Shown here piece by piece: positions 17,647 through 61,844 of a stretch of DNA of 64,000 nucleotides. The notes under the pieces are model-generated. The model was not told the origin of the DNA, did no database searches, and saw only the letters and a list, made by a program, of their open reading frames with translations. Each line of letters opens with the position of its first letter. The first letter of the stretch is position 1. Location: NCBI GenBank assembly GCA_964438385.1, contig CAYTKI010000028.1, forward strand, positions 6,521 to 70,520, read 5' to 3'. Position numbers and translations under genes: made by a program. The DNA is from an uncultured Methanosarcinales archaeon (GTDB taxonomy: Archaea > Nanobdellota > Nanobdellia > Woesearchaeales > GW2011-AR4).

Positions 17647-18231
17647 ATGGCAAAGAAAGTTGTCAAAGTGCAAAAAGTCGAGAAGAAAGATATCCAAGTG
17701 GTGAATATTGTTGTCTCCACCTCTCTTGAACATGCGATTCCTCTTGAGAAGATGGCTGCGACGCTTTCAAACACCGAGTATAATCCTGAGCAGTTTCCAG
17801 GGCTTGTCATCCGCATAAAGGAGCCAAAAACCTCTGCGCTGATTTTCTCATCGGGAAAAGTGGTCTGCACGGGCGCAAGGTCCATGGATAAAGTGGAGGA
17901 ATCCATCAAGAAGATCATCAAGTCACTTGAGAAAATCAACGTCAAGATAACCGTCAAGCCAAAAATAGAGATTCAAAATATGGTGGCGTCGGGAAGCGTT
18001 GGCATGGCTCTCAACCTCAATACACTTGCAATGAAGCTCGACAATACGGAATACGAGCCGGAGCAGTTTCCCGGTCTCGTCTACAAACTCGGCGGAAAAT
18101 CCGGCTATGAGAAAGCGACGTTCCTTCTCTTTAGCAACGGCAAGGTTGTCTGCACAGGAACAAAAAACGAGGGCGAAGTGCGCCAGGCGCTTGATAAGCT
18201 CATCGAAAATCTCAAGAAAGTGAAGGCATAG
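17647..18231 (+). CDS. tbp: TATA-box binding protein
   Basis: 194 aa with two direct repeats (…EYNPEQFPGLVIRIKEPKTSALIFSSGKVVCTGA… / …EYEPEQFPGLVYKLGGKSGYEKATFLLFSNGKVVCTGT…) diagnostic of archaeal TBP. Confidence 0.95.
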   Translation: MAKKVVKVQKVEKKDIQVVNIVVSTSLEHAIPLEKMAATLSNTEYNPEQFPGLVIRIKEPKTSALIFSSGKVVCTGARSMDKVEESIKKIIKSLEKINVKITVKPKIEIQNMVASGSVGMALNLNTLAMKLDNTEYEPEQFPGLVYKLGGKSGYEKATFLLFSNGKVVCTGTKNEGEVRQALDKLIENLKKVKA

Positions 18232-18270: not shown

Positions 18271-21200
18271 ATGGCAGAAAAGGATGTAGGGGTACCTATG
18301 GAAACCGAAGAAGCAGGGCTTGAGTTCAGCCCGCGCGCCCAGCCGCAGTACAATGCCCTTGAGCACATCAGAAAATTCAAGGAACTAATGGAGGCATCCT
18401 TCTATTCGGAGATTCTCAAGAGCATCCGCAAGGGTGAAAAATTCTTCGTAATTCCATTTCCCGAACTTTCAAAATTCGATCCTGATCTCGCAAACGATTT
18501 GCTTGACAATCCTGAAGAAGTCATCAAGGCAGCCGAGCTTGCGGTGCAGCAATTTGACCTGGGGATGGAAAACGGCCTGCCTCTTTTTATTCGAATAAGG
18601 TTCTCGGACTTGCCTGCATCCCAGGGAGTCATGATAAGAAATATCAGGAGCGTCCATCTCAACAAGTTTGTTGTTTTGGAAGGGGTAGTGAGGCAGAAAT
18701 CAGATGTCCGCCCACAGGTAACGACCAGCAAGTTCGAATGCCCTGCATGCGGAAACGTCATCAATGTCCTGCAGCTCGATACCACCTTCCGAGAGCCGTC
18801 AAAATGCGGCTGCGGGAGAAAAGGAAAATTCCTCATGCTAAGTAACGAGCTTGTGGATGCGCAGGGGATTGTCATTGAAGAGTCCCCGGAAGTGTTGGAG
18901 GGAGGCGAGCAGCCAAAACGCGTCAATGTCTTTCTAAAGGATGATTTAGTGAGCCCATTAAGCGAGAGGCGCACAAGCCCAGGCTCCAAGGTTGTGGTGA
19001 ATGGTATTGTGAAGGAAGTCCCAATACTCTCGCGCACAGGAGCAAAAATGACAAGATTCGATCTTTTGATTGAGGCGAATTTTGTTGGATCATCGCAGGA
19101 GAGCTTCTATGAGGTGGACCTCAATGAACAGGATATTGTCCAAATCAAGGAAATTGCAGAAGACCCGCGCGGCTATGAGAAAATCATCTCATCAATAGCT
19201 CCTTCCATCTACGGCTATGAGAAGATTAAGGAAGCGCTCTTGCTCCAGATGCTTGGCGGCGTGAGAAAAGTCCGCAACGACAAAGTGGTCAGTAGGGGGG
19301 ATATGCACATTTTGCTTGTCGGTGATCCGGGAGCTGGAAAGTCGCAGCTCCTAAAAAGGGTGGCAACCATTGCCCCAAAATCCCGTTATGTCTCCGGTAA
19401 GGGGGCTTCGGGGGCTGGGCTCACCGCATCAGTTGTTCGTGATGAGTTTCTTAAAGGATGGGCTCTGGAAGCAGGCGCTCTTGTCCTTGCGAGTGATGGA
19501 ATTTGCTGCATTGACGAACTCGATAAGATGGGCGTTGAGGACCGTGCAGCGATGCACGAGGCACTTGAACAGCAATGCTATCATTATGATACCATTATCA
19601 CGCTGGCCAATGGTGAAGAAAAAGTAATTGGGAAATTGGTCGAAGAGCTGCTGCAACAAAACAGTTCTCAGGTCATTCAAGGAAAGGATTGCCTTGTTCT
19701 GCCGATAGGGCATCTTGGCATTGAGATGCTCACAACGGATTGGAAAGATATATTTCCAATCAAAATCAATAGGATAAGCAAGCACATCGCCCCTAGCCAT
19801 TACATCAAAATACAGATCGGCAATGGGAGAAGTGTCATCGTAACGCCTGAGCATCCTTTCTTTTCTATAAATGATGGGAAGATTATCACAAAACGTGCGG
19901 ATGAAGTGATTGAGGGGGACTGGACTCCGGTGCCGCTCATTGCTCCCATCGAAGGAGAGAGGCAATTCTTCGGTGTAAATACAGAAAAGCTCTACAACAG
20001 CAGGGCTTTGAAGCACATCCTCATACCAAAAGGCAACTGCGAGGAGTTTTTCAAGATCGTAGGGTATCTTGCCGCTGAAGGATCGAAGGAGAGGAATAGG
20101 GGAAAACTCATAGGCATCAATTTCACCAATAAGGATCCTCTATTGCTTGAAGATTTCTCCCAGTGCATGCAGTATCTCTTTGGAATTGCCCCCTACAAGC
20201 AGGAGAGGAAAGACCATCATGATGCAAGGTGGATGCTTAGATACATCTCAACTGAGCTTGCGGAATTTTTCAGGAAAAACTGCCCCGGATTGCTTGAGCT
20301 CGCAGCTAAAAAAGAGCTTCCGCAGATTGTCATGCGCGGCGAGAAAAGAAATGTTGCAGCGATGCTGCGGTGCCTTTTTGAGGGAGACGGCCACGTCTCG
20401 AAAAAGACAAGGACGATTCGGATCGGCTACGCTTCAAACAGCGAGCGATTGGTCCACCAAGTGCAGGATCTGCTCTTGCGTTTTGCCATCCGGAGCAATC
20501 TGACGCTCCATGAGGGATCCTACAAGGTTGGCATCACCGGTTATGATAACATCAAGCGCTTTAGAGAGTATATTGGCTTTGTGACTAAGAACGGGAAAAT
20601 TGATGAATATTTGAGGCAGAAATCACCGATTCGGACTGTTAAGGATTTAATCCCAACTATTGCCCTAGAAGTGATTTCTTTGCTAAGAAAATACAAGATT
20701 GGGCAAATTGGAAACTATAAGACATATGATATGGAATATGATCACTGCAGGAGGGGTTTTGATTTTTCAAGAAAGCAGCTTCAGAAGATCGTGCTTGAGC
20801 TGGAACAAAAAATAGGTGAAGAGGACAATGCTGCCTTTTCCAGATTGAAAGGATATGCATTCGGGTCAATTGGATTCGAGCAGGTTCGTTCAGTTGAGCG
20901 AATCGAAGACCGCGACCAGAAATGGAGCTATGATGTCACCATTGAGCCAAATCATACATTTATTTCACAAAATATGGTGTTGCATAACACCGTCTCGGTG
21001 AGCAAAGCAAACGTGCAGGCAACCTTAATTGCTAGAGCAACCGTGCTCGCTGCCGCGAACCCAAAATTCGGTAGGTTTGATCCTTTTGATATCATCGCAA
21101 ACCAGATTGACTTGCCTCCGACTTTGATCAACCGCTTTGATCTCATTTTTCCCATAAAAGACATTCCTGATGAGGTGAGGGACGAGAAGCTCGCAGCCCA

Positions 21201-21789
21201 CATCTTGGGACTGCACCAAAATCCGGAGATCCAAAATACGGATATCTCAACTGATCTGCTCAAGAAATATATCGCATATGCGCGGCAGTTTGTCCGCCCC
21301 CGCCTCACTCCGGAATCCATTGAAGAGATAAAGTCGTTCTACCTCAAGATGCGCGTGTCAGGATCAGGGGAAGGGAGTATTAAGACCATTCCCATTTCAG
21401 CAAGGCAGCTTGAGGCGCTCGTGAGAATGGCAGAGGCCTCGGCAAAATCAAGATTGTCTGATGTGGTGCTAAGAAGGGATGCAAGAAAGGCAATTGAGCT
21501 GTTGGAGTATTGCCTGCTCCAGGTTGGATTTGACAAGGAGACGGGAAAGATAGATATTGACCGAATCGCAACTGGTGTTGGGGCTTCCCAAAGAAACACC
21601 ATCCTCATTGTCAAGGAGATCCTAAATGACCTTGAGATAAAAATGGGCAAGACCATCCCAATTGAAAGCATCGTGCAGGAAGCAAAAAATAGGGGGCTGG
21701 AAAGCGACAAAGTTGAAGAAGCCATCGAGAAACTGCGCCGAACAGGAGATATCTTCGAGCCGAGAAGAGGGTTCATTAGCAGACTGTAA
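18271..21789 (+). CDS. mcm: MCM replicative helicase, intein-containing precursor
   Basis: Walker A GDPGAGKSQLLK, Zn finger CPACGNV...CGCG, MCM core ...RAAMHEALEQQ|intein|TVSVSKANVQATLIARATVLAAANP; 1172 aa = ~701 aa MCM + 471 aa intein. Confidence 0.95.
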   Translation: MAEKDVGVPMETEEAGLEFSPRAQPQYNALEHIRKFKELMEASFYSEILKSIRKGEKFFVIPFPELSKFDPDLANDLLDNPEEVIKAAELAVQQFDLGMENGLPLFIRIRFSDLPASQGVMIRNIRSVHLNKFVVLEGVVRQKSDVRPQVTTSKFECPACGNVINVLQLDTTFREPSKCGCGRKGKFLMLSNELVDAQGIVIEESPEVLEGGEQPKRVNVFLKDDLVSPLSERRTSPGSKVVVNGIVKEVPILSRTGAKMTRFDLLIEANFVGSSQESFYEVDLNEQDIVQIKEIAEDPRGYEKIISSIAPSIYGYEKIKEALLLQMLGGVRKVRNDKVVSRGDMHILLVGDPGAGKSQLLKRVATIAPKSRYVSGKGASGAGLTASVVRDEFLKGWALEAGALVLASDGICCIDELDKMGVEDRAAMHEALEQQCYHYDTIITLANGEEKVIGKLVEELLQQNSSQVIQGKDCLVLPIGHLGIEMLTTDWKDIFPIKINRISKHIAPSHYIKIQIGNGRSVIVTPEHPFFSINDGKIITKRADEVIEGDWTPVPLIAPIEGERQFFGVNTEKLYNSRALKHILIPKGNCEEFFKIVGYLAAEGSKERNRGKLIGINFTNKDPLLLEDFSQCMQYLFGIAPYKQERKDHHDARWMLRYISTELAEFFRKNCPGLLELAAKKELPQIVMRGEKRNVAAMLRCLFEGDGHVSKKTRTIRIGYASNSERLVHQVQDLLLRFAIRSNLTLHEGSYKVGITGYDNIKRFREYIGFVTKNGKIDEYLRQKSPIRTVKDLIPTIALEVISLLRKYKIGQIGNYKTYDMEYDHCRRGFDFSRKQLQKIVLELEQKIGEEDNAAFSRLKGYAFGSIGFEQVRSVERIEDRDQKWSYDVTIEPNHTFISQNMVLHNTVSVSKANVQATLIARATVLAAANPKFGRFDPFDIIANQIDLPPTLINRFDLIFPIKDIPDEVRDEKLAAHILGLHQNPEIQNTDISTDLLKKYIAYARQFVRPRLTPESIEEIKSFYLKMRVSGSGEGSIKTIPISARQLEALVRMAEASAKSRLSDVVLRRDARKAIELLEYCLLQVGFDKETGKIDIDRIATGVGASQRNTILIVKEILNDLEIKMGKTIPIESIVQEAKNRGLESDKVEEAIEKLRRTGDIFEPRRGFISRL
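19576..20988 (+). mobile_element. intein with LAGLIDADG homing-endonuclease domain inside mcm
   Basis: Begins Cys (CYHYDTIITLANGE), ends ...VLHN followed by Thr; two LAGLIDADG-like blocks (VGYLAAEGS, LFEGDGHV); in-frame with mcm. Confidence 0.85.
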
Positions 21790-21882: not shown

Positions 21883-22551
21883 ATGGACCAGGAGCAAAGA
21901 AAGCGGGCAACGGCAGTTAGGTTTTCCATCGCAGAACTGAAAAGCGCGCCTTATGTTAAGGAGGGCGGCTGGGCATCAGGCTACCTGCAGGCAGGTGGGC
22001 AGGTTTCCCGCATATGGATAATGGGGACTGTAGTGCAAAAAGCTCAGGACAATCTTTCTTTGGTGGTCGATGATGGCTCTGGCTCTGTTGCGCTGCGCGT
22101 ATTTGAAGACCATGGATTATTATTTAATATGGATGTTGGTGGGACTATTCTTGTGATTGGAAAGCCGCGTGAATTTGGGGGTGAGAGGTATGTGCTGCCC
22201 GAGATAGTGCGGAATGTGCACACGGACTGGCTCAAGGTGCATAATAAGGAGATTTCCAGGAGGGGAAAAATAGCTGCACCTCTGGAAAGCCCGATACCGA
22301 TCAAAAAAATTGTTGGGGTTGCTCAAAGTGATGCTCAAGAAAATAATAGTGGTCAGAATGAAAATAGTGGTGAAAGTCCAATAGAATTGGTGTGTGCATT
22401 CATCAGACAGCACGACTCGGGCAATGGTGTTGATGTTGAGGAAGTCATCAAATCAAGCGGAGTTGGGGATTGTGAGCACCTGATTTCACAGCTACTGCGT
22501 AGTGGGGGGATTTTTGAGATACGGCCGGGAAGAGTTAAGGTGCTGGAGTGA
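21883..22551 (+). CDS. OB-fold nucleic-acid-binding protein with C-terminal winged helix (RPA32/Stn1-like)
   Basis: 222 aa; OB-like core RIWIMGTVV...SLVVDDGSGSVALRVFED...GGTILVIGKPREFGGERYV; C-terminal wH-like segment; located directly downstream of mcm. Confidence 0.4.
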   Translation: MDQEQRKRATAVRFSIAELKSAPYVKEGGWASGYLQAGGQVSRIWIMGTVVQKAQDNLSLVVDDGSGSVALRVFEDHGLLFNMDVGGTILVIGKPREFGGERYVLPEIVRNVHTDWLKVHNKEISRRGKIAAPLESPIPIKKIVGVAQSDAQENNSGQNENSGESPIELVCAFIRQHDSGNGVDVEEVIKSSGVGDCEHLISQLLRSGGIFEIRPGRVKVLE

Positions 22552-24062: not shown

Positions 24063-24512
24063 TTGCTGATTCGCTCACGGAAAAGACGCTGCCTTCATTC
24101 GGAACAGAGCCCCCGAAATAGAAAGTATAATAAATTAAATTACATCATTAAGACTGTGATTAAAAAATGTTATTTGTTTTGTGGGTTATTAGTGGTATTT
24201 ATTTTGTTCTTTGTTAGTATAGCATATTTTAACAAATCTTTCAAATCCAATCTAGAATGTGATGCGGATCTTGATTGCATCCTTACCCATAGAGATTCCT
24301 TAGAACTCAATTCTTGCTGGAAAAATGCGTGCGGTGATATTGATTACTCTCAAGAGGGATATATCGCCGTAAATGAAAATTTGATTCCGAAGTTATCTAA
24401 AATAGAAAAGAAGGTTTTGTGCGGTCCAGCACCTAACTGCCCTTCTAAAATAATTAACAATAATTATATGGCAAAGTGTATAGACCAACAATGTAAAAAG
24501 GTTCAAAAATAA
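24063..24512 (+). CDS. hypothetical small secreted Cys-rich protein in AT-rich patch
   Basis: ORF with TM (LFCGLLVVFILFFVSIAYF) then Cys-rich domain; no in-frame ATG near TM (GTG/TTG start likely); local GC much lower than flanks. Confidence 0.25.
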   Translation: MLIRSRKRRCLHSEQSPRNRKYNKLNYIIKTVIKKCYLFCGLLVVFILFFVSIAYFNKSFKSNLECDADLDCILTHRDSLELNSCWKNACGDIDYSQEGYIAVNENLIPKLSKIEKKVLCGPAPNCPSKIINNNYMAKCIDQQCKKVQK

Positions 24513-24725
24513 TTTATGATATTTTAATTATAGGGGAGTTGAATTAACTACACTTTCAATTTGAACATAGCTCCTTTTCAATTAAATTCCTTCCAATCAT
24601 CAGGTAAGTGAAGTGTAAGATCTTTGCTTATACCAAAGTCTGTACCAATAAAATTACCACTGTGTGCTTCTTGGGTGTACATGCTTTTTCTCCCTAGCAT
24701 TATACGGTAATAATTTTTCATACGT

Positions 24726-27700
24726 TCACCCAAACCACCGTCCCAGCCCCTCCTGCTTCTCTTTCTCCCTTCCAAATGTCTCCTCAACCCTATCTTTGGT
24801 CAATGCAAGGCTCTGCTGCAGGTACGCCGGTAGATGGTACTTTGCAGCAAGGGAGATTGCCGGCTCAAGGTATTTGATGACAGACCCTTCCGAGACAGTA
24901 AATAAAATCCTCCCAGAGCATTTCGTGCATTTACCGATCAATGGCGGCCTGCGGAATTTCTCATTGCATTTCACGCAGCGAAATTCCTGCGTCGAGAATT
25001 TGCGCAAATTCCCTCGAATGTCCCTGATGAGGTGCTTCTCAATCACCAATCTAGCGACATCAGCCGCGTCCACTGCCCGAATCCTGTCCGCAAGGTCCAT
25101 CTGCCCGCGGAGCTTCTCCTCCATTGAAGGCAATATTTTGTAGGCGGAGCACAGCACACCGTTATTGATGTTGGATGTCCCGTGGGTGAAACCAATCCCC
25201 TCATACTGCAAAGGAGTGTTGATGCGCTTGCCCATTTTTTCTATGGGTACTTCCCACGGCTTCTTGAACTGCAGGCATGCTTCATAGAATTCTAAGGGGT
25301 ATGTCCAGGCAACATCCAGGTCAAAAAGCATATCATCAACTTCCGAAGGGACAACTTTTGATGTCAAAACTAAGGGGGCATCCTGCGTCGCGCCGCGGGT
25401 TGCTGGCAAGAACTGCCGTGAAAAATTCAGCAGCCCATCAAGGAGCAGCGTGACGCATGCCTCATCCCCATCGCAGTCCCTGCGGGTGGCGGCATGGAGC
25501 ATCGGGTGCGCAAGCAATCCCTGAGTTTGGGAAAATCCAAGAATTCTTCCAACTATTGCTGCAGAAGTATGCGGGGCAAGAACCATCACCAGATGGCCAA
25601 CAAGATCCTGTGCTGAGGAAAGGTTGTAGTAGCCATTCAATCCATACATAAGCGCGAGCATGTCATCTATGCATTTGGTGGTATTGAAAAGCACCTTGTC
25701 CGCCCCGGCATCCGGGGAATCGGGGCATGCAGGAAGTATCAGGTCTTGCGGCTTTAGTTCAAGGAGTTGGTCATCATCCATCAATTCCCTCCCATGGATA
25801 TCCTTTAAGTATCCTAATTCCTTGAGCCGTAAAATGCCAGTTCCTATTTCATTGGGCTTAAAATGAGTGATGGGTAATTGGGTTGCGTCATAGCGGGACG
25901 TCCCATCCTTATTCACCGCTATATCATATTTGGCCCGCAGTATCCCCTTGAGCGGGTGTTCTGGGATGTGGTCCTTGCTCGATGTTCCCTTGACTCCCTT
26001 GATAAGGTCGGGAATCACATCCATCTTCATGGTCTTTGCCACATCATCAAAGATTTGATTGATGTTGATTTTTTGTTTGGTGAATGTTGCTGCCTTGCCG
26101 TGGATCTTGCAGTGTGTCATTTCTATGAGACCGCACATCTTGCAGTGGTAAAGTTTTATTGCCTGCCGGCCGCACTTCTCGCAAACACCAAGGACCGTAT
26201 GGTGGTTGCACTGCTTGCAGATAAAATTTGGAAATTCCCCTTCCACAACCCCTTCACCCATTGCGCTTTGGAATGATCGTAATCTTCCGCCCTCTTCTCC
26301 GACGGGAAAAAGCACATGAGGGCTTCCGGTTAGTTTGCGCAGTTTTGCTTTCTCCGGCCTCCCCATGCGTGCCCCTATGAAGGTGCCTGATTTGTCACGG
26401 AGAATAATCCCGCAAACTGCGCTGAGTGATTCCAAAATCTCTTTCTCTGCAAGCTCCTTGAGAAGGAGGGCGTGCCAGTCGTCTTTGAGCATGGCTAAAG
26501 TGGAAACAAGCGCAGTGCATTCCTCTCCCTTTATCACCACAAACTCATTTTGCGCGACAGTGTGTGGTATTCCAAGGATCTCAAGCACGCGCTTTGAATC
26601 TGTGATGAGGGGGAGCACTAGCTTGTGTTTTCCTTCCTGAGTGATTTCAAGCTGGCCGTCCCTAAGCCAGTTAATGAGAAGTGAGAGCTGTTCTTTGGAA
26701 ATGGTTTTCCAGTGATAAGTATAGAGGGGATGTAGGGGGATTCCATATGATTTTGAGATGAGTAATGCAAGGCCGCAGCCAGGTTTCACTTGGAGGGGAT
26801 TCCCGATAAGCCCGCGGATAAGCTCTTCATTCTGGTTCAGCTCATCGGAAGAAGTGGGAAAATCAAGCGAGCCGTGCTTCTTGGTAATCGCGCATTCGAG
26901 TTCTCGCGCCCACCATTCCTCGCAATATCCGGCAGGAACGAGGGGATGTGCACGGTTGAAAAAGTCGCCGTAGCTGAAGAGGATGTCACCTAGGAAAAGA
27001 ATCTCTGCAACCTCCCGCGCGGCCGCCTTTGCTTTTTGCTCTGTGTCCAGTAGGACAACGTCCCCATTCTTAAGCTTCACAATCGGCCCCTCTATGGAGT
27101 CGCAGCTTGCGAGAGCCGCGGCTTTTCCTGGGCGCTCCACCTTGAGCTGGGTTCCGATGGCAATATACCTATTGAGGATGTGCATCGTCGCAGGATGAAT
27201 GGCTGCTGCCGAATAGCCGGTTGTTCTTCCCCTTCCGTAGCGCAGCCGAAATCCGCCAACCGCAAGAGGGTGAGTGAGAACAGGGCGTCCTGCCACCAGG
27301 TCTTTGATGTAGGTGTACACAGGGGAGATTTTTTCTTCTTTATCTGCGACTTTGCTCTTTGACTTGATGCTGTTTTGCAGTGCAAGGAAGTCCTTGAGAA
27401 AAATCCAGTGCTCAAGGTTGAAATCCTTTCCCCATTTCGAGAGCTGCGTCCATACTTTGGATGCTTTTTGTGCAATGCATTCTCCGGTGACAAGACAAAA
27501 TCCTCCTCTGATTTTGTTGGTATCAATGCGCGGTATGTCCTTGTGGTTGGACACCTCGATGTCTTCAGAGGGGTCGCCATCGATCTGCACAGGGATGTGC
27601 CTTGTGAGGAAATGGATCTCCTCTTCGCTTGGGAGATATTGAAGGTTTGTGATGCGGTCGTGATAGTCATGCAGCTCTGTTGCTGAGCGCTTGACTTCTT

Positions 27701-28277
27701 CCTCTGTTGGGTCATAAGGCTCATAGCCCATCATGACGCGGATATAGTCCGCAACGAGGAGTGAGACCGCTCCTGCGGTGCCTCCCGCGCTTCTGATGGG
27801 CCCAGAAAACATCAGCGCAAAATAGTCCTTGCCATCTTTTCTTTTTTTGAGCTTAAGTTCCACAAATCCCTCAAGTGGCGATGCGACTACCCCTAAAGTA
27901 AGATAGGCAATTCCAATCCGAATTCCGGTCTCCATCGCTTCCCTTTCTGTGGCAAATGCGCAGTACTTCTGTTGGGAGACCTCAAGTGAGACTTGCAGCG
28001 CGACCCTCCAATCCAGTTTCCCGAATTTCTGCTCAAGCTCCTGGATGCGCTGTGGAATTCCTTTACCTCGGATCTGTGGCATGGCAGCGCTCACAAGCCC
28101 CTCAACTCTTTCTGAGAGGTTTTTTGCAAGGGGGATATTCACATCCATTTCAGGGTCAAATCCCTTGGAGCGCGCCTGCTGCGCAAGCGTATATGCTTCC
28201 TGCACCTGCGAGAAGATGGAATCTGTGTATGCCTGCATCTCCTCACTCATTTCATTGTTAATGTGTGTTATAGCCAT
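24726..28277 (-). CDS. polC: DNA polymerase II (PolD) large subunit DP2
   Basis: Start taken at MAITHINNEMSEEMQAY; conserved DP2 blocks (FSGPIRSAGGTAG..., Cys clusters CKQCNHH...CEKCG...CKMCG); no intein. Confidence 0.9.
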   Translation of the reverse strand: MAITHINNEMSEEMQAYTDSIFSQVQEAYTLAQQARSKGFDPEMDVNIPLAKNLSERVEGLVSAAMPQIRGKGIPQRIQELEQKFGKLDWRVALQVSLEVSQQKYCAFATEREAMETGIRIGIAYLTLGVVASPLEGFVELKLKKRKDGKDYFALMFSGPIRSAGGTAGAVSLLVADYIRVMMGYEPYDPTEEEVKRSATELHDYHDRITNLQYLPSEEEIHFLTRHIPVQIDGDPSEDIEVSNHKDIPRIDTNKIRGGFCLVTGECIAQKASKVWTQLSKWGKDFNLEHWIFLKDFLALQNSIKSKSKVADKEEKISPVYTYIKDLVAGRPVLTHPLAVGGFRLRYGRGRTTGYSAAAIHPATMHILNRYIAIGTQLKVERPGKAAALASCDSIEGPIVKLKNGDVVLLDTEQKAKAAAREVAEILFLGDILFSYGDFFNRAHPLVPAGYCEEWWARELECAITKKHGSLDFPTSSDELNQNEELIRGLIGNPLQVKPGCGLALLISKSYGIPLHPLYTYHWKTISKEQLSLLINWLRDGQLEITQEGKHKLVLPLITDSKRVLEILGIPHTVAQNEFVVIKGEECTALVSTLAMLKDDWHALLLKELAEKEILESLSAVCGIILRDKSGTFIGARMGRPEKAKLRKLTGSPHVLFPVGEEGGRLRSFQSAMGEGVVEGEFPNFICKQCNHHTVLGVCEKCGRQAIKLYHCKMCGLIEMTHCKIHGKAATFTKQKININQIFDDVAKTMKMDVIPDLIKGVKGTSSKDHIPEHPLKGILRAKYDIAVNKDGTSRYDATQLPITHFKPNEIGTGILRLKELGYLKDIHGRELMDDDQLLELKPQDLILPACPDSPDAGADKVLFNTTKCIDDMLALMYGLNGYYNLSSAQDLVGHLVMVLAPHTSAAIVGRILGFSQTQGLLAHPMLHAATRRDCDGDEACVTLLLDGLLNFSRQFLPATRGATQDAPLVLTSKVVPSEVDDMLFDLDVAWTYPLEFYEACLQFKKPWEVPIEKMGKRINTPLQYEGIGFTHGTSNINNGVLCSAYKILPSMEEKLRGQMDLADRIRAVDAADVARLVIEKHLIRDIRGNLRKFSTQEFRCVKCNEKFRRPPLIGKCTKCSGRILFTVSEGSVIKYLEPAISLAAKYHLPAYLQQSLALTKDRVEETFGREKEKQEGLGRWFG

Positions 28278-28328
28278 TTTTTTGTTTTTAATCTTGGATG
28301 GTGGTTTTAAAGGCAATGCCCTGTTATT

Positions 28329-29912
28329 TTATTGGTTTCCAAATTTCAAAATCTTGATCTCTCTTGTCTGCAAGTTCACAACAGGGACCCTACCGGGCTC
28401 GGGGTGGTGCCCGACTTTTTCCTGGAATGCAGTTTTGGACTGCCAGCAGGATCCGCAAATCAGTGTGGTTCCTTTGTAGTTTGCGGAGACTGATTTGTGG
28501 ATGTGCCCGCTGATGAAAAAATCTGGGACGGTCTCGATGACTAGCGGGTCGCGATTCCTGTCGGGGACATATTGGTTTGAAGTGTGTGTGGGTGCAAGGT
28601 GCCTTCTTTGGAGGAGAAATTTCATGATGAGGTCGGCGCGGTCATAGCCGCCCTGGTTTCGCAGCGAATTCACTTCAGCGACAAAATGATCAAAGGAATA
28701 GCCATGATACATAAGGACATTGAAGCCGGAAAAATCTCTGGAGGAGTGGATGTTGATGAGCGCGGGGTTTGAAACGATGGTTGCATTTGGAATCTCGTAA
28801 ATTGGGGCAGAATAGGTCTTGGTGAATAATGGCTGCGGCTCTGCGAGCCGAACGGCATCATGATTTCCAGGGCAAATAATCATCTGGATATTTTGTGGGA
28901 TTCTCTTGAGAAGATCGGCGCAGATTCTGTATTGGTCATAGATATCCTTGATATCAAGCTCATCTTCCTGGCCAGGGTAGATGCCGACCCCATCCACCAA
29001 ATCACCGGTGACGAAAAGGTATTTTACTTTGGATGCAATCTCTCTCTGCTTCTCATTGCCCACTTCTCCATTTATCCATTTGAGGAATTTTTCAAAGTCT
29101 TCCGCCAGGAACTTGGCGGAGCCGAGGTGGATATCGGATATGAAAGCGGCATATACTTCATCTGTGGATTTTTTCGTGTCTGTGGAGGGGATATCTGGCA
29201 GAAACAGCTCATTTGCAAAAACAATGGCATCCCCATTCACCCCTATGACACCGATGACTTCATCCATCACGATGTCCGAGGCCTTGCGATAGAGCTCCGG
29301 CTTGTTTTTGTTAACAAGCACCTTGATGGCGCCGGTCGGATCTTCTAAAGTGAGCATGAGGTTTCCATTTTTGGTTGTGTCCTTCCCATTCACCATACCG
29401 ATGAGTGCCAAGGGCTCTTTTTCCCTTCGCTTCAGGAGATGTTTTATTGAGATGGTTGACTGCAGAGCTTGCCGTGTCTTGAGTATCTTTTCGATGGCGC
29501 GAAAGCGGTGGTTGAAGTAGTCAACAAAATCCTGTACGTTGCGCTTGATGTTTTCTTCGTTATAGGAAAATTCCACCTTGACAGGATATTTTTGGTTTGG
29601 GAAGTGTTGTGCGAGGGGGGTCTCCTGAAGAAGGGAGATTTTTTCCATTGCCCTTTCGTAGCTTGCCTTGTTGCCTTTTTCCTGCAATACTTTGATCCTC
29701 TCAAGTTCAGTCCAGTTGAGTCCTTTGGTGTGGTGTTGTGTTACCTCTGTGCTCATCACCGTCGCACCAGAAGTGGCATGCATGCGCGCATAGAAACTCT
29801 CAAAATCATCATCTTCTGTGATGGAGTTAAGAAGGTCTGCGCTCAGTAGTATCCCGCGCTTGAGGAAATTGGAAACGATTTCTTTTTTCCGGAGGATTGG
29901 GTGCTCGTGCAT
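28329..29912 (-). CDS. polB: DNA polymerase II (PolD) small subunit DP1
   Basis: Calcineurin-like phosphoesterase motifs FISDIHLGS, GNHD, GHIH; N-terminal region typical of DP1; start overlaps cdc6 stop by 1 nt (TGATG). Confidence 0.9.
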   Translation of the reverse strand: MHEHPILRKKEIVSNFLKRGILLSADLLNSITEDDDFESFYARMHATSGATVMSTEVTQHHTKGLNWTELERIKVLQEKGNKASYERAMEKISLLQETPLAQHFPNQKYPVKVEFSYNEENIKRNVQDFVDYFNHRFRAIEKILKTRQALQSTISIKHLLKRREKEPLALIGMVNGKDTTKNGNLMLTLEDPTGAIKVLVNKNKPELYRKASDIVMDEVIGVIGVNGDAIVFANELFLPDIPSTDTKKSTDEVYAAFISDIHLGSAKFLAEDFEKFLKWINGEVGNEKQREIASKVKYLFVTGDLVDGVGIYPGQEDELDIKDIYDQYRICADLLKRIPQNIQMIICPGNHDAVRLAEPQPLFTKTYSAPIYEIPNATIVSNPALINIHSSRDFSGFNVLMYHGYSFDHFVAEVNSLRNQGGYDRADLIMKFLLQRRHLAPTHTSNQYVPDRNRDPLVIETVPDFFISGHIHKSVSANYKGTTLICGSCWQSKTAFQEKVGHHPEPGRVPVVNLQTREIKILKFGNQ

Positions 29913-31117
29913 CAGAGGTGCAATTGCTCGGAGAGCTGCTGCTTTATTTTTGGTATGATTTGTTGTGGGAGGGAAAGGGAGATTTCGCGCATCCTCCCAT
30001 ACCTCCCTTTGGAGATGATTTTTGCGTTGATGAATCCGAGCATATCAAATTCGCCTAGGATGTCAGATATTCTTCTTTGGGTGAGTGGCCTCATTCCTGC
30101 TTTTGCGCAATGGAGTTTGTAGAGTGAGTATACTTCTCCTGTGAAGATGTTGGAATTTCTCGGTTGGATAGAGAGTATGGTGTAAAGCGCAAGCTGGTGC
30201 TGCGCTGGTTGTGTGGAAATGAGTTCTGTGAAGCGATCCCTATCAATCTTCTCATCCGCTTCATCGAGGTGGAGGAGTGTTATTTTTGGTGAGTTTGCCC
30301 GCTCAGCCAGCTCTCCTGAGATGCGTAAGAGGTCAAGTGCCCTCCTCGCATCCCCATGCTCGCGAGCAGCGAGCGCCGCGCATTTCTCAATAACACCCTC
30401 TTCTACTATGCCTTGTTTAAATGCAGAATTTGCGCGATGGTGAAGGATATGTTGGAGTTGCGGCGCATTATAAGGAGGAAACACTATCTCTTCCTGAGAA
30501 AGTGATGATCTCACTCTGGGATCGATATGGTCGATGAGGGTAAGGTCATTGGAGATTCCGATAAGAGAGAGGTGGTTTGTCTGGTGATCTTCATTGATGC
30601 GTAGGAGATTATAGAGGGTATTGTCCCCTGCTTTATTGAGGAGGTGATCAACTTCATCCAATATAACAATCACATTTTTTCCCCGTTTCGCAAGCGCACT
30701 GAGAAAATGCTTATAGATATCCTTTGTTGGAAGCCCTGTAGAGGGAACTTCTCTTCCCAAGGCGGAGCAGAGTTCTGCCATGAGGCGATATTCAGTGTCT
30801 GCAGTGCGGTTGAGTTTGCAGTTAACATATACTATATCGAGGGGGATATTTTCCTTCTGTGCAACTGCTAGAAGCCCTGCTGCAGTGTATCTGACTGTAA
30901 GTGTTTTTCCACTGCCGGTTTTTCCATAGATAAAAATATTTGAAGGGCGTTCCTGCTTAAGCGCTGGTGCAAGTGTGTGCGCGAGAAGATTGATTTGATC
31001 CTCCCTATGGGGAAGCTTTTCAGGGATGAATGAGTTTTGTAGTGCCTTCTTTTCCAAAAAAAGCGATTCTTTTTTGAGAAAATTCTCAAAAAATATATTC
31101 AATCCACTTTCCCCCAT
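29912..31117 (-). CDS. cdc6: Orc1/Cdc6 origin-recognition/initiator protein
   Basis: AAA+ Walker A IYGKTGSGKT, Walker B IVILDEVD, C-terminal winged helix; start set to MGESGLNIFFENFLKK (31117) because TATA-like tatataaatata lies 25-35 nt upstream; ORF alternatively extends to 31177. Confidence 0.9.
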   Translation of the reverse strand: MGESGLNIFFENFLKKESLFLEKKALQNSFIPEKLPHREDQINLLAHTLAPALKQERPSNIFIYGKTGSGKTLTVRYTAAGLLAVAQKENIPLDIVYVNCKLNRTADTEYRLMAELCSALGREVPSTGLPTKDIYKHFLSALAKRGKNVIVILDEVDHLLNKAGDNTLYNLLRINEDHQTNHLSLIGISNDLTLIDHIDPRVRSSLSQEEIVFPPYNAPQLQHILHHRANSAFKQGIVEEGVIEKCAALAAREHGDARRALDLLRISGELAERANSPKITLLHLDEADEKIDRDRFTELISTQPAQHQLALYTILSIQPRNSNIFTGEVYSLYKLHCAKAGMRPLTQRRISDILGEFDMLGFINAKIISKGRYGRMREISLSLPQQIIPKIKQQLSEQLHL

Positions 31118-31177
31118 AAAGATTCCAAACGAAATGGAGGTATATAAATATATGGTTTTTCTCTTTCCTACCCCCAC

Positions 31178-31508
31178 CCCACCACTTCCTATGGAAAATA
31201 AAAAATACTCACATTCCCTTCATTTTTCTAACAAAAAAAACAACAAAAAACCCTTATTATTATTATTTTCTATATAGATAAATTATTATTATTATTAAAA
31301 ATAAAAAAATAATAAAAAACACCTCCAAAGGAAATGATGGTGTAACACTATCACTATTAATAATAAAAAACACACACCAAATCAACCATTAAAAAATCCA
31401 CCACAAAGAAAAAGAGAGGAATAAGAAAGGTGGTGGACAGCACCATATATTCTCACCCAAACAAAAAGCAGCATATACTTTTAAATAAACAAAGCCGTTC
31501 ATTTCATT
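31178..31508. other. candidate replication origin (oriC) upstream of cdc6
   Basis: Non-coding, strongly AT/purine-skewed; (TTA)4 tracts at 31255-31267 and 31283-31297; mini-ORB-like cTTCCtaTGGAAAa (31186-31198) and cTCCaaaGGAAAt (31323-31335); 8-bp inverted repeat TCCACCAC/GTGGTGGA (31397-31404/31430-31437). Confidence 0.4.
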
Positions 31509-32414
31509 ATGTGTGTGGTTGTTGGTGGTTCTGGTTTTATAGGAAGGGTTCTTGTACAAAAATTACTTGAGCAGGGGAAAAAAGTGAAAGTAATTGATAT
31601 ATCTCCTTTCCCCTTCACCCATAAAAACCTCACTTTCACTAATAAATCAATCCTAGATGACCTCTCTACAGACTTTAAAGATTGTGAGGTTGTTTACCAT
31701 TTTGCCGCTGTTCTCGGAGTCGCAAATTCTGACCAGCACCCCTTAAAAACACTCGAGATCAATCTCCTAGGCGCGCGCAACGTATTCAAGACAGTAGTTG
31801 AGCAGAATGTCAAGACAATCATTTTCTCATCATCCTCGGAAGTGTATGGGGAGCCACGCGAGCTTCCCATCAGGGAAGATACTATAAAAGGCCCAGTCTC
31901 TATATATGGAGTCTCAAAACTTGCAGCGGAGATGTATGCGCTCGCATACTTCAAGGAGAGTGGTGTGGATTTTCGTATTGTCCGGTTTTTTAATGTCTAT
32001 GGGCCTGGCCAGGAGCCTCAATTTGTTATCCCTCTCTTCATCAAAAGTGTTCTTGAAGGCAAGCCACCAAAAGTGTATGGCAGCGGCAGCCAGACAAGGT
32101 GTTTCACGTATGTTGAGGACGCAGTTGATGGGGTGTGTGCTGTTTTGAATAAAGGAAAGCCAGGAGAGGCCTACAACATAGGCAACAACCAGCAGACAAC
32201 CATCCTTGAGCTCGCAAAGATTGTGATTAAGGTATCAGGTAAAAATATCGAACCGGACACAGTTCCTTTCGGCAGCACAACACGGCAAAAAGAGCGTGAG
32301 ATAAACTACAGGCAGCCGGACATCTCAAGGATGAATAGTCTGGGATGGAAGCCCCTTGTTATGGTGGAGGAAGGTGTCCAAAAGACATACGAGTCAATGG
32401 CCAAACAGAAATGA
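31509..32414 (+). CDS. NAD-dependent epimerase/dehydratase (extended SDR; UDP-sugar 4-epimerase/decarboxylase-like)
   Basis: GGSGFIGRVL Rossmann motif, catalytic YGVSK (YxxxK). Confidence 0.8.
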   Translation: MCVVVGGSGFIGRVLVQKLLEQGKKVKVIDISPFPFTHKNLTFTNKSILDDLSTDFKDCEVVYHFAAVLGVANSDQHPLKTLEINLLGARNVFKTVVEQNVKTIIFSSSSEVYGEPRELPIREDTIKGPVSIYGVSKLAAEMYALAYFKESGVDFRIVRFFNVYGPGQEPQFVIPLFIKSVLEGKPPKVYGSGSQTRCFTYVEDAVDGVCAVLNKGKPGEAYNIGNNQQTTILELAKIVIKVSGKNIEPDTVPFGSTTRQKEREINYRQPDISRMNSLGWKPLVMVEEGVQKTYESMAKQK

Positions 32415-41278: not shown

Positions 41279-44200
41279 ATGCGCGCGCCAATCATCGTAT
41301 TTTTCCTTTTTCTCACTCCATTAGTTTCTGCTCTTCCTATTAACCTTGGCTTTGAACTGGGAAATATGAGCAACTGGCTCATCACCTATGAGGGGCTTGG
41401 ACTCGACTACACATCAACAGCATCCACTAATTTCAGCACCGAGGGAAACTATTCTGTTCTTTTTGGAGGGGCTTTGGGCTATATGAATAATTTTAATACC
41501 CATTTCTCCGCAATCAACCACTCTACCCAGATGGTTCGGCAGAATGATTTGGTCTGTCTTGACATCAAAAAAGACACTACGGGCTTAGGCAACTGGAAGC
41601 TCTATTCCTCGCTCATGGGAATATTCAAGTCCTCTTCAGTGGACGGCTTTGCCGATGGAAGCTATAATAACACCTGCCTCGCTTCTCCTGAAGAAGGGAA
41701 ACTTGACCTTATCGTGCGGGGGCTTGACGGGAGCTGCGGCTCCACGTGCCGCGTTCGCATCTATGTTGATAACATCCGCGTCTTTCCCTGCAACGACACC
41801 ATCAAAAATGGTGATGAGACGGATATTGACTGTGGGGGGCACTGCGGCCAGTGCGCGAACGGGCTGAACTGCACTAAGCATGCCGATTGCTCCTCTTTCT
41901 ACTGCCAATCAAACTCAACATGCAGGGAAGCGCCCTCCTATCCTTATTACCTCAACACCAACTGGGAATCGGGATTGACAACGTTTTGGGGCTTTTCGTG
42001 GCTGGCAGAAGGGACTTCCACTCTTGATGCCGGGACAAGGTACGCGAGTGAAGGCAACTATTCCTTCATCATAGACAGCCCATCCGGAGGATTGAATTCG
42101 CAATCAGGAAACTCAAACATCGTGAACATGATTCATAATTCAACAAGAGTGGAGCCGGGAGAGGAGGTCTGCCTTGACTACAAGAAGAACGCCACTTCTG
42201 ATACAGAGTATACCATAAAGCTCTACACAAATGGCACAATAAACACTTCCATCCCCACAGGCGAGCACAAGGGGCATTGCGCCACTTCTCTTGGCAACGG
42301 AAGCCTCGGGGTTGTCGTTTTGGGCACGAAAGGAAGCGGCTGCGGAGGCGACTGCATTGGCAACTTCTTTATTGACAACATCACAATTGGGCTTCGCAAC
42401 TGCACAGATGGAAATAAGGACCGGCTTGAGACTGATGTTGACTGTGGCGGCTTTTGTGGCAAATGTGTTGCAGGAAGAAGCTGCCTATTTGGCTTTGATT
42501 GTGTATCTGGCAACTGCTCTTCTTCGGCATGCACGGCTCCTTCCTCCTGCTCCAACCTTGCGCTGGACTCCGGAGAGGAAGGCATTGACTGCGGCTCAGT
42601 GTGCAACATCACCTGCGAGAGGGCACTATTGGAAAGGTATGCTCCTGTGTTGTATTTCCATCCTGACGAGCAGTTCTTTCCGACATCAATAGAGGCGATG
42701 CTGAATGAGAGTGATTTGAGAAATCGCACTTTTTTTACTGATGAAATCTTGGACAATCTTCCAGTTGATCAAAATAGTATACTGTTTGCACCAAATACAA
42801 GCTACTTGGATTTACAAAATTCTAGCGCATTAACAGGCAATTTCGGTGTTCCCGAAGGTACACGTTTTACCAAATATGGATACAAAATATATGGAAGAAA
42901 AGTTGAAATAAACTCTACATACATTTTTCTACAATATTGGGTTTTTTACCCATTTAATGATTGGAATAACAACCATGAAGGTGACTGGGAGATGATTCAA
43001 CTTAAACTCAATTACTCCAATCAGATTCCAATTGAATCTACATATTCCTTCCATTGGGGAGGCATTACTCATAATTGGTCTAGTATTGGAAAAAATGGAA
43101 CCCATCCCAAAGTATATGTTGTTGAAGGAGGTCATGGAAGCTGGAGTACACCTGGAGATCATGATTGGGCACAAGACGTACTAGGTCTTTATTGTCAATC
43201 TTTAACTGATAGAACTTCTAATAATGGAAGTTTTATAGAAATTTATACTAATTATAGTTTAGAAGTCATAAATAATAATAGTGTCTTTGTTAATTTTAAA
43301 GGAAAATGGGGGGAAATCAACACGGAAGGCACAACCGGACCGGATAGTCCAAACAGAATAAATTATGGCGCAGGAAATAGATGGGAAGATCCCTTATCGT
43401 GGGCAAACAATCCTTTACCAAATTCTTATGCGGCTTGTACAGGAAGCCCTGTTAATTTGTATGCTGTTGATCATAATGGCAATAGAATAGGGTTAAATTC
43501 ATCCGGAAACATTACTATTAACATTTCTAATACTTACTTCTATTTAACTTCTGATGGGGGTCAAGAGGCAATAGTAATCTTAAATTCAAATCCAATCACT
43601 TTTATTATAAATGCGACGGGGAACGGAGCATTTAATCTTTCTATAAGTAATTACAACAGTACTTCCTTTTCACGAAAAAACATTGAATACAAAAATGTCA
43701 AAATTACAAACTTTACTACTGCCTTCGTAAGCATTTCTGAAACAAACCCTAACTTTATCATGAGAATAGATAATGACGGGGATGGCAACATAGACTCTAC
43801 ACTCTCCCCAAATAACCTAACAATTAATAACAATGGATCAACTGAAGCAGATTCAGACAACGACAGTTACTCCGATACTATTGATAATTGTCCTCAATTC
43901 TATAACCCCCATCAATTAAACGATACCGATAAGGATGGTTTTAAATCAATCTCCTGCGGAGGTAATGACTGTAATGACGCTAATGTTAACATTAATCCTC
44001 TGGCCTCGGAAATTTGTAATGGATTAGATGATAATTGTGATGGACTTACAGATTCAACCTGCCAAACGGCATCCTCAGGCTCGTCATCCGGGGGAGGGGG
44101 AAGTGGAGGTATACTCTCCACCAAAACAATCAAAGAATGTGAAGGAGAAACTTGCCGGAAGACCCAATCCCCTATACCAGATATAGACTCATATATACAT

Positions 44201-44464
44201 TCTGATCAGTCAAAAAATATCCCTAATTCATTTGAATTAAGTACGGCAGAAAGATTGGCACTAGTAGGAATTTGCTTAGATACTTCTAGTCCTACTCGAA
44301 TAAATTCTCCATGTAATATTAAACTAAACATAGATCGATCTGAAGAATCTGCCTCTTTTAAAGGAATAACTGGAAACACAATTTCTAATAAAAATCAGTT
44401 CTCTCTAGAAGAACTTGGGAGAGCTATCAAAGAATGGTTTTTAAAAATTTTTAATTTTAACTAG
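41279..44464 (+). CDS. large secreted multidomain protein (Cys-rich modules, Vps62/DUF946-like region, MopE-like metal-binding motifs)
   Basis: Signal peptide MRAPIIVFFLFLTPLVSA; CGGHCGQC/CGGFCGKC modules; YAPVLYFHPDEQFFPTS Vps62-like; CGGNDCNDANVNINPLASEICNGLDDNCDG motif; Gly/Ser linker; 3' third is AT-rich. Confidence 0.75.
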   Translation: MRAPIIVFFLFLTPLVSALPINLGFELGNMSNWLITYEGLGLDYTSTASTNFSTEGNYSVLFGGALGYMNNFNTHFSAINHSTQMVRQNDLVCLDIKKDTTGLGNWKLYSSLMGIFKSSSVDGFADGSYNNTCLASPEEGKLDLIVRGLDGSCGSTCRVRIYVDNIRVFPCNDTIKNGDETDIDCGGHCGQCANGLNCTKHADCSSFYCQSNSTCREAPSYPYYLNTNWESGLTTFWGFSWLAEGTSTLDAGTRYASEGNYSFIIDSPSGGLNSQSGNSNIVNMIHNSTRVEPGEEVCLDYKKNATSDTEYTIKLYTNGTINTSIPTGEHKGHCATSLGNGSLGVVVLGTKGSGCGGDCIGNFFIDNITIGLRNCTDGNKDRLETDVDCGGFCGKCVAGRSCLFGFDCVSGNCSSSACTAPSSCSNLALDSGEEGIDCGSVCNITCERALLERYAPVLYFHPDEQFFPTSIEAMLNESDLRNRTFFTDEILDNLPVDQNSILFAPNTSYLDLQNSSALTGNFGVPEGTRFTKYGYKIYGRKVEINSTYIFLQYWVFYPFNDWNNNHEGDWEMIQLKLNYSNQIPIESTYSFHWGGITHNWSSIGKNGTHPKVYVVEGGHGSWSTPGDHDWAQDVLGLYCQSLTDRTSNNGSFIEIYTNYSLEVINNNSVFVNFKGKWGEINTEGTTGPDSPNRINYGAGNRWEDPLSWANNPLPNSYAACTGSPVNLYAVDHNGNRIGLNSSGNITINISNTYFYLTSDGGQEAIVILNSNPITFIINATGNGAFNLSISNYNSTSFSRKNIEYKNVKITNFTTAFVSISETNPNFIMRIDNDGDGNIDSTLSPNNLTINNNGSTEADSDNDSYSDTIDNCPQFYNPHQLNDTDKDGFKSISCGGNDCNDANVNINPLASEICNGLDDNCDGLTDSTCQTASSGSSSGGGGSGGILSTKTIKECEGETCRKTQSPIPDIDSYIHSDQSKNIPNSFELSTAERLALVGICLDTSSPTRINSPCNIKLNIDRSEESASFKGITGNTISNKNQFSLEELGRAIKEWFLKIFNFN

Positions 44465-44778
44465 AAACCCAACTTAAAATTAACTAAGGTGAGTAAGTTA
44501 GCAGTTATTTTTATGCCATATAGTAATACCAGCAACGAAATCCAGATTAAATCTCTAGTGACTAACTTCTCCTTTTTTCCAATATATATAAAAATAATTA
44601 TTCCTAAAATAAAGAATAAAACTGGTAAATAAAAGACGAGTGAAGAAAATAAAAAGAAAAGATTCAGATCGCGAAGGAAAACCTCTATACCATAGTTCAA
44701 ACCTATAAAATCAAAAAAAACCATAAGTGTTAATAGGATTAAAATTAAAATCTGAATTTTTTTGTTCATCATTTCCAT
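44461..44778 (-). CDS. small hydrophobic membrane protein
   Basis: 105 aa, 3 predicted TM; very AT-rich; 31 nt downstream of methyltransferase gene on same strand. Confidence 0.35.
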   Translation of the reverse strand: MEMMNKKIQILILILLTLMVFFDFIGLNYGIEVFLRDLNLFFLFSSLVFYLPVLFFILGIIIFIYIGKKEKLVTRDLIWISLLVLLYGIKITANLLTLVNFKLGF

Positions 44779-44809
44779 AGAATAACTACCAGATATAACA
44801 ATATATAAA

Positions 44810-51479: not shown

Positions 51480-52033
51480 GGAATCTTTGATTAAAGGGAT
51501 ATTATTAAGTCTTTCCCATAGAACGCGCCCAATGCGGGGCGCCAAACTATTGCGAGCAGCAGGCGAGCATGATGGGGAGATGATTAAGAGAGATAAAATG
51601 AGGGCAGAATAGTTTTTAAATTCTTAAAACAAAGTTTAATCATATGGATATTCAAGCTTATAAAAGATATGGTTTACCATCTTTTCTTTTTATCCTTACG
51701 ATTTTGCCAATGATTGGTTATGGACAGAATTTAGTTAGCTTAAAAGCCCATATTGATTACCTAGCTTACTATTTTTTATTTGACATTCTCGATATATATT
51801 CCGATTATAGTAGCAGTTTCATTAGAAGTAATTATTGTGTTTTTTTAGTGTTAAAAAAAAGATACATCTCGGTTACATGATTTGGATGATGATGTTTGTT
51901 CTCGTGTATGTTTCTTTAATTTCTCAAAGATTCTTCAATGTAACTATTCCTTTAGTGTGATTACTTATCAAAATCTTAAAAAGAATTCATTAAAACAGAA
52001 AAGGATATAAAACAAAATGCAGCCATCCCCCCC

Positions 52034-61683: not shown

Positions 61684-61844
61684 GATAATTTTACTCAGCT
61701 ACCCAATGAGGTTTTTCATTATTAATTTTTTTTAATGAGTATCTTCTTTTTTATTTTCAACAATTTTTTAAGCAATTAATTACTGTTTAATTTATCAATG
61801 TGTTTTTGTTAGTTTTAGTTAATGGATAGTGTTGTTAATGGGTT

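Follow-up and report, generated by a model that had tools for sequence, protein, structure and literature searches.

We analyzed a 64-kb stretch of DNA from an uncultured Woesearchaeote (the window), assigned to the DPANN group Woesearchaeota/Nanoarchaeia by the sources of its nearest Cdc6 homologs and of related genome contigs, and identified the spacer at 31118–31508 as a predicted chromosomal replication origin of the oriC1 type, lying beside its own initiator gene, orc1/cdc6. We hold this prediction with high confidence. The spacer contains three origin recognition boxes (ORBs), and an AT-rich duplex unwinding element (DUE) separates two of these, which face in opposite directions; the extended sequence pattern of the boxes is unique to the spacer within the window, and they are conserved across the lineage. 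The spacer also holds the window's minimum of duplex stability and coincides with a local switch in strand composition. An earlier sequence-only reading had proposed a candidate oriC upstream of a cdc6-polB-polC operon; the three ORBs, the DUE, their conservation and the window-scale skew switch support that proposal. The predicted origin is canonical for its type, while a conserved, origin-restricted palindrome in the middle of the DUE goes beyond the expected anatomy.

The 401-residue Cdc6 protein translated from ATG 31117 is 100% identical to a protein-database entry (P0001), and every relative aligns from this codon. We therefore place the true start of cdc6 at ATG 31117, with GTG 31177 merely the start of the longest open reading frame. 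Because cdc6 begins at ATG 31117, the spacer extends over 31118–31508 (391 bp), rather than the 330-bp non-coding region at 31178–31508 described in the sequence-only reading. The spacer and the two genes that bound it comprise the following features:

29912–31117, minus strand: orc1/cdc6 initiator gene, 401 amino acids, with Pfam domains Cdc6_C, Cdc6_lid and AAA; Orc1-1 type by similarity.
31124–31143, plus strand: ORB-a, TCCAAACGAAATGGAGGTAT, a pattern match between the cdc6 TATA box and ATG.
31141–31148, minus strand: cdc6 TATA box, TTTATATA, with the invariant block TTATATACC in alignment A2.
31167–31195, minus strand: ORB-b, TCCATAGGAAGTGGTGGGGT then GGGGGTAGG, an exact pattern match (pattern part 31195–31176).
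31196–31323, no strand assigned: DUE, 128 bp, ~85% AT, holding both TTA microsatellites.
31263–31280, minus strand: 18-bp mid-DUE element, reading TATCTATATAGAAAATAA in the cdc6 sense and differing at one position from the family consensus TTTCTATATAGAAAATAA.
31324–31343, plus strand: ORB-c, TCCAAAGGAAATGATGGTGT, an exact pattern match, inverted relative to ORB-b.
31344–31475, no strand assigned: variable filler of ~130 bp, A/C-rich on the plus strand and G/T-rich on the cdc6-sense strand, 28% identical to relatives.
31479–31488, plus strand: epimerase TATA box, TTTTAAATAA, ~26 nt before ATG 31509, with the conserved block TTATTTAAAAGTAT in alignment A2.
31509–32414, plus strand: NAD-dependent epimerase gene (Pfam), divergent from cdc6.

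Alignment with relatives defines the ORB unit as TCCA-N3-GAAA, 4 nt and GGnGT, comprising a dyad core and a G-rich tail. Archaeal ORBs have been described in the same terms, as a core mini-ORB with a “G-string” (PMC1868953); the dyad core typical of oriC1-type origins is TTCC...GGAA(A). The core in the window matches published Orc1 sites of P. furiosus (ORB1/ORB2, TTCCAGTGGAAATGAAACTCTGGGGG, the reverse complement of the published oligonucleotides; PMC1904270) and of S. solfataricus (the Orc1-1 mini-ORB, or mORB, GATTTTCAGATGAAACG; PMC3089459). The cores of ORB-b and ORB-c adjoin the DUE and their G-strings are directed outward, that of ORB-b toward cdc6. ORB-a lies 6 nt from the cdc6 start.

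We asked how often such sequences occur across the window. The bare Pyrococcus 11-mer TCCAGTGGAAA, allowing ≤2 mismatches, matches 37 times versus 24.6 expected, and the word TCCNNNGGAAA seven times versus 3.7 expected. The bare 11-mer with mismatches is thus indistinguishable from chance as an ORB detector, and we used an extended 20-bp pattern, TCCANANGAANNNNNGGNGT, instead. This pattern has three matches in 64 kb versus 0.38 expected, all within 220 bp in the spacer, and none of 100 shuffles attained three. The sequence-only reading had listed two mini-ORB-like cores, and both are present (TTCCTATGGAAAA at 31186–31198 and CTCCAAAGGAAAT at 31323–31335), but the set was incomplete, missing the third ORB at 31124–31143. 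Its description of these matches as weak holds for the bare 11-mer, which is at chance level, but not for the 20-bp core and G-tail pattern. A scan for sigma-70 promoters and intrinsic terminators was set aside as irrelevant to an archaeon, its “terminator” matches being the ORB dyads, and an Rfam search of 30500–32000 found no RNA family.

No other 128-bp stretch of the window is as AT-rich as the DUE (85.9%), and the window's least stable 100 bp lie inside it (−98.5 kcal/mol versus a mean of −137.4, s.d. 8.0). The TTA microsatellites that had been read as a plausible unwinding element are present, as (TTA)4 at 31254–31265 and (TTA)5 at 31283–31297, and the coincidence of the AT maximum with the stability minimum bears out that assignment. 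The plus strand of the DUE contains one G versus 18 C. More broadly, the interval 31178–31508 had been called extremely AT- and purine-skewed. The first half of this description stands (73% AT versus 53.6% across the window); the second does not, as purines make up only 55.6% and the true asymmetry is of A over T (skew +0.31) and of C over G (−0.42). Other AT-rich or low-stability stretches of the window (73–83% AT) lie at 61712–61840, 24117–24570, 43179–44820 and 51578–52020, and the extended ORB pattern occurs in none of them.

We compared the locus with those of close relatives, with Cdc6 proteins 71–81% identical to that of the window. With the exception of one lineage, these retain the epimerase gene, a spacer of 370–420 bp, and the order cdc6-DP1-DP2. 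Taking segment identity as the fraction of five relatives (lineages with Cdc6 71–80% identical) that agree with the window base, we found that ORB-a (0.89), the cdc6 TATA box (0.87), ORB-c (0.79), the mid-DUE element (0.76) and ORB-b (0.70) stand out from most of the remaining spacer (0.28–0.44). Identity is 0.60 in the T-rich, low-complexity DUE segment at 31281–31323, 0.64 in the epimerase TATA box, and 0.57–0.76 in flanking coding sequence. ORB-b takes the form TTCCAmArGAAAcGArGGrGTAGGAC in the relatives. The 8-bp inverted repeat noted by the sequence-only reading, TCCACCAC (31397–31404) and GTGGTGGA (31430–31437), does exist, but it falls where the spacer is least conserved and is absent from the relatives, which carry unrelated G/T-rich sequence in its place; we dropped it as an origin element. 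In the exceptional lineage (L086:1087–3157 and L087; Cdc6 80% identical), an IS200/Y1-type transposase gene replaces the epimerase neighbor and the origin elements are intact; on the far side of the origin, hairpin-rich sequence, ACACCACTGGTGAAACACCAGTGGAAAGC, lies beside the transposase gene.

Conservation of the ORB-like elements in relatives had been set beforehand as a test of the origin call. Beyond the identities given above, it is evident in a set of 86 loci made up of the window, the five close relatives, and 80 more distant genomes (Cdc6 53–61% identical). Across these loci, the core TCCANNNGAAR is enriched 23-fold near the initiator gene, with 4.32 copies per kb in the 600 bp preceding cdc6 versus 0.19 per kb over the remaining 1.13 Mb. 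The cores fall into three classes. Class 1 (48 loci) lies at about −16, directly adjoining the TATA box, with the consensus TTCCAnAnGAAAtg.AGGT. Class 2 lies at −65 to −110 and reads toward cdc6, and class 3 (distal; 54 copies) is present once or more at −180 to −480 and reads away from it; these two classes have the common consensus TTCCAnAnGAAAt.AAGGgGT. In the ORB-b class (75 copies), G frequencies along the G-string are.88/.88/.56/.80, versus.32/.51/.23/.25 in background cores. An inverted pair of cores is found in 33 loci, enclosing a spacer with a median length of 196 bp and an AT content of 81.5%, versus 60.4% for the whole loci.

Strand composition also changes at the spacer. As a cumulative GC-skew polarity switch had been named as a check, we computed the skew at the scale of the 64-kb window: it climbs to a maximum at ~31 kb and declines thereafter, with inverted polarity. 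The genes nearest the spacer diverge from it, and we therefore separated gene strand from position in a per-gene, length-weighted regression. Over 43 genes, the effect of side was −0.096 ± 0.014 and that of strand +0.035 ± 0.014. In third-position GC skew, 39 of the 43 genes, on both sides, follow one rule: genes pointing away from the spacer are C-rich, and genes pointing toward it are G-rich. The switch at ~31 kb is thus real and independent of gene strand, and it reaches the window's ends on both sides. AT skew depends on gene strand (+0.084) but not on side.

Against solved structures, the window's Cdc6 matches S. solfataricus Orc1-1 best (2qby_A, 3.4e-104), followed by A. pernix ORC1 (2v1u_A, 1.6e-91), and these are the two archaeal initiators crystallized on ORB/origin DNA. 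Matches to paralog structures are much weaker (Orc1-3, 2.7e-43; ORC2, 1.3e-14). This similarity ranking assigns the window's initiator to the Orc1-1 (Cdc6-1) type, not to Orc1-2 or Orc1-3. We looked for a second orc1/cdc6 paralog within the 64-kb window and found none.

By analogy with the Sulfolobus, Aeropyrum and Pyrococcus systems, we infer a mechanism in which the Orc1-1-type product of the neighboring gene would bind the inverted ORB-b (31195–31176) and ORB-c (31324–31343) as monomers in opposite polarity. The two bound initiators would flank the 128-bp DUE and recruit MCM, whose gene lies 10 kb away, onto it, and forks would depart bidirectionally. The conserved 18-bp palindromic element in the DUE would act as an additional cis element. 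ORB-a is a putative autoregulatory operator as well as a third Orc1 site. The usual spacing between an archaeal TATA box and the transcript start is ~26 nt, which would place the cdc6 transcript start at ~31118. Orc1 bound to ORB-a, between the TATA box and this predicted start, may repress its own promoter, and such repression would couple initiator supply to origin occupancy. Both TATA boxes lie ~26 nt from their respective start codons, and the cdc6 and epimerase mRNAs are therefore probably leaderless.

Several points weigh against the assignment of the spacer as an origin. Bacterial leading strands are G-rich, and the maximum of cumulative GC skew marks the terminus. The polarity at the spacer is reversed with respect to bacteria, and hence terminus-type; it is origin-type only if leading strands are C-rich. 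Moreover, in 39 distant relatives the GC skew of the ±8-kb flanks does not vary consistently with side (−0.005 ± 0.007) and is dominated by gene strand, so the window's switch cannot be generalized. The window covers 64 kb of the genome, and further origins or Orc1 paralogs may lie elsewhere. Finally, Thermococcus kodakarensis is reported to replicate without the equivalent oriC or Cdc6, both of which are dispensable (PMC5663688); canonical anatomy is for this reason no proof of use.

The last point also favors an alternative in which the spacer is a regulatory region only, with the ORBs serving as Orc1/Cdc6 operators for cdc6 and the divergent promoter, and with the site dormant or replication driven from another origin or by recombination. 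Of the three boxes, ORB-a is the most conserved (.89) and falls exactly between the TATA box and ATG, and Orc1 paralogs can be transcription regulators (PMC9738581). We consider this alternative unlikely: an operator needs neither two extra inverted ORBs around the least stable DNA in 64 kb nor a conserved element within the AT-rich stretch, and it would not yield a strand-composition switch at the site.

The sign of that switch raises a second alternative, that the site is a replication terminus by the bacterial skew rule and that the mid-DUE palindrome, with its 8-bp arms and 6-bp spacer (TTATTTTC-TATATA-GAAAATAA), is a dif-like recombinase site. In every lineage examined, however, ORBs flank the site and the initiator gene adjoins it, and the nearest genes diverge from it. 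Inverted skew is also documented at proven archaeal origins, having been reported for four chromosomes of haloarchaea whose origins were either mapped or assumed (PMC1868953). A terminus is thus highly improbable. The weakest alternative, an ordinary AT-rich spacer between divergent promoters that accumulated ORB-like words by accident, gains something from the near-expected counts of the 11-mer and TCCNNNGGAAA, but is refuted by the confinement of the 20-bp pattern to the spacer, by its conservation where the surrounding spacer has diverged, and by the fixed positions and orientations of the enriched cores over 86 loci, and we give it almost no weight.

The predicted oriC1-type origin resembles characterized origins in different respects. 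In Sulfolobus oriC1, as in the window, the initiator gene adjoins the origin, and two of three ORBs stand in inverted orientation on either side of an AT-rich DUE, which is ~130 bp long there and 128 bp in the window (PMC12141716); this comparison leaves aside which ORB end faces the DUE. The Pyrococcus/Thermococcales oriC shares its gene order and the ORB core TTCCAnTGGAAAT with the window, and its long ORBs are likewise inverted and contain a G run (PMC1904270), bearing out the Pyrococcus-like arrangement of oriC, cdc6 and the small and large PolD subunits that the sequence-only reading had invoked. The G-string, however, begins ~4 nt after the core in the window versus ~10 nt in P. furiosus. 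Unlike the window, Pyrococcus has many additional mini-ORBs of 13 bp, and its dp1 contains a second cluster of ORBs; the window's dp1 (28329–29912) has no match to the extended pattern and one loose TCCNNNGGAAA at 29886–29896. Skew polarity is normal in Pyrococcus (PMC1868953) and inverted in the window. The haloarchaeal oriC1-cdc6 shares with the window core and G-string ORBs around a DUE, G/T-rich tracts beyond the ORBs, and inverted GC skew with C-rich leading strands (PMC1868953). It differs in that haloarchaeal ORBs carry an extra halophile-specific G-string and the genomes contain many cdc6 genes and origins, while the window has a single initiator gene. Within DPANN, the origin of ‘Ca. 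Forterrea’ (Diapherotrites) likewise lies beside cdc6; in the portion of that report available to us it is placed by skew and Z-curve, with no description of ORBs, a DUE or other cis-elements (PMC5905446).

The mid-DUE element contains a perfect palindrome, TCTATATAGA, at 31269–31278. In distant relatives, inter-ORB spacers are unalignable except for one island, TTTCTATATAGAAAATAA. Across the 86 loci, we counted 42 sites within ≤2 mismatches of TTTCTATATAGAAAATAA in the 56.6 kb of cdc6-upstream sequence versus one in the other 1.11 Mb, and 41 of the 68 loci with enough upstream sequence have a site. Inverted ORB cores bracket 28 of the 42 sites, and the AAATAA extension of the element is directed toward cdc6 in 31 of the 42. 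Variation is almost absent at C4, G11 and the central ATAT, and we found no compensatory change beyond expectation at symmetric positions of the palindrome. In 28 of the relatives' loci, we also compared G+T with A+C content across the inter-ORB spacer. The bias flips at the palindrome in 15 of the 28, and in the opposite direction in two, with means of +0.22 in the distal half and −0.21 in the cdc6-proximal half; in loci with the flip, the T/G-rich strand runs 5′ to 3′ toward the DUE center from both sides. The window is without this flip, the halves of 31196–31323 giving +0.40 and +0.38.

Scanning metagenome contigs motif-first for TTTCWATATWGAAAATAA returned 120 loci, of which ten carry a cdc6 homolog, eight of these within 1.2 kb. 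The remaining matches are probably chance occurrences in AT-rich genomes, and since only ten of 120 loci carry cdc6, the 18-mer alone is not diagnostic. The scan nevertheless brought to light a second archaeal lineage (L170, with L218–L220 found through its Cdc6 homologs), which has the 18-mer with 0–1 mismatch. Its GC content is 40–46%, its Cdc6 is ~35% identical to that of the window, and its ORBs are of a subtype, TCCACTGGAAAATTACTCnCACTG, without a G-string. The order in this lineage is ORB, 18-mer, inverted ORB, TATA box, ORB at −20, and cdc6. In these loci (L170:3580–3790; L218, L219 and L220:2700–3000), cdc6 stands among small genes without Pfam hits.

By position, the mid-DUE element recalls the Sulfolobus ucm, a short conserved motif inside the DUE that lies midway between the inverted ORB2 and ORB3. 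Firing requires this motif, and its binding protein, UBP, contacts MCM (PMC12141716). The likeness in sequence is weak. The ucm probe AACCATTATACAAAAGAATT agrees with the element at 10 of 13 positions in a by-eye alignment of AT-rich sequence, and the ucm sequence ATTATACAAAAG is not matched, its single C being replaced by G. The two also differ in distribution: UBP, reported only in Sulfolobales and Desulfurococcales, has >300 sites scattered through the genome (PMC12141716), whereas the mid-DUE element is essentially origin-exclusive, with the one site at ≤2 mismatches in 1.11 Mb of Woesearchaeota flanks.

Candidate partners or roles for the mid-DUE element are a UBP-like accessory factor, a weak Orc1 site, TBP, and a structural role. 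Under one account, to which we give somewhat less than even weight, there would be no separate factor: the element would be a weak or ATP-dependent Orc1 site, a TATA-like palindrome bound by TBP that aids opening through transcription, or a structural feature such as a cruciform or an easily melted segment. The element and the ORB core have TTTC...GAAA in common, its inverted half-sites, TTTC and GAAA, being similar to the GAAA half of that core; its center is TATATA, and a tbp gene lies nearby; and in L219 the palindrome is perfect across 22 bp. On the other hand, the same 18-mer is kept in a lineage with a different ORB tail (ATTACTCnCACTG, no G-string) and a ~35%-identical Cdc6, which disfavors recognition by a lineage-specific initiator. 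The element also lacks the TTTAWATA form of promoters at these loci, and the absence of compensatory change together with the near-invariance of C4 and G11 argues for base-specific recognition over structure alone. We tentatively propose, as a possibility that we do not rate as probable, that TTTCTATATAGAAAATAA is an undescribed origin-specific cis element of at least two archaeal lineages with different ORB subtypes and initiators only ~35% identical, recognized by a conserved non-Orc1 factor; this factor would be a functional UBP counterpart, acting between two MCM hexamers loaded from the flanking ORBs, and would be needed for firing. A full-text literature search for CTATATAGAAAA returned only an unrelated primer, and a limited literature search found no earlier description of the palindrome.

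In limited literature searches we also found no cis-element description of a Woesearchaeota origin, and DPANN origins have so far been placed only by skew beside cdc6 (PMC5905446). The base-resolved map of the predicted origin, with its three ORBs, DUE and promoter-overlapping operator, is transferable to dozens of metagenome-assembled genomes (MAGs), and could anchor read-depth growth-rate estimates and genome-closure checks in this uncultured lineage. In 2025 the question was raised whether a ucm/UBP-like accessory origin element and factor exist outside Sulfolobales (PMC12141716), and the mid-DUE palindrome is relevant to it. The 18-mer is short and defined, and is amenable to in vitro work with recombinant proteins.

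The genes around the predicted origin include further replication and transcription factors:

28329–29912, minus strand: PolD small subunit DP1, with Pfam DNA_pol_E_B, Metallophos and OB-fold domains; its start overlaps the cdc6 stop.
24726–28316, minus strand: PolD large subunit DP2, with Pfam PolC_DP2 N, central and catalytic domains (E-values down to 1e-119).
18271–21789, plus strand: MCM helicase gene, with Pfam MCM, MCM_OB, MCM_lid, Intein_splicing and LAGLIDADG_3 domains.
17647–18231, plus strand: TBP gene (Pfam TBP, 4.6e-60).

The order oriC-cdc6-dp1-dp2 is present in the window and retained in relatives, and the Pfam domains of Cdc6, DP1 and DP2 confirm the cdc6-polB-polC order given in the sequence-only reading. 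The tbp and mcm genes that it placed near the spacer are likewise identified by Pfam, 9–13 kb to the left. The P-loop domain of MCM (1172 amino acids in total) is interrupted by an intein that includes a LAGLIDADG homing-endonuclease domain. Just 3′ of mcm, a 222-residue protein (21883–22551, plus strand) with weak OB-fold/RMI2-like Pfam matches only may be a single-strand-binding or replication accessory protein. The largest open reading frame in the window encodes 2022 amino acids (5627–11695, minus strand).

Assemblies of Woesearchaeota MAGs appear to break systematically at the predicted origin. Of the 80 related genome contigs, 18 stop within the DUE or at its border, ≤400 bp from cdc6 on the upstream side (L002, L005, L006, L008, L014, L022, L029, L035, L040, L043, L044, L048, L051, L056, L064, L065, L070 and L079). 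The window's own contig is contained in samples ERR3478687 and ERR4904393, and several metagenome contigs of its species and closest relatives (L082–L085 and L094) break there too. These breaks are probably due to low-complexity TA/TTA runs.

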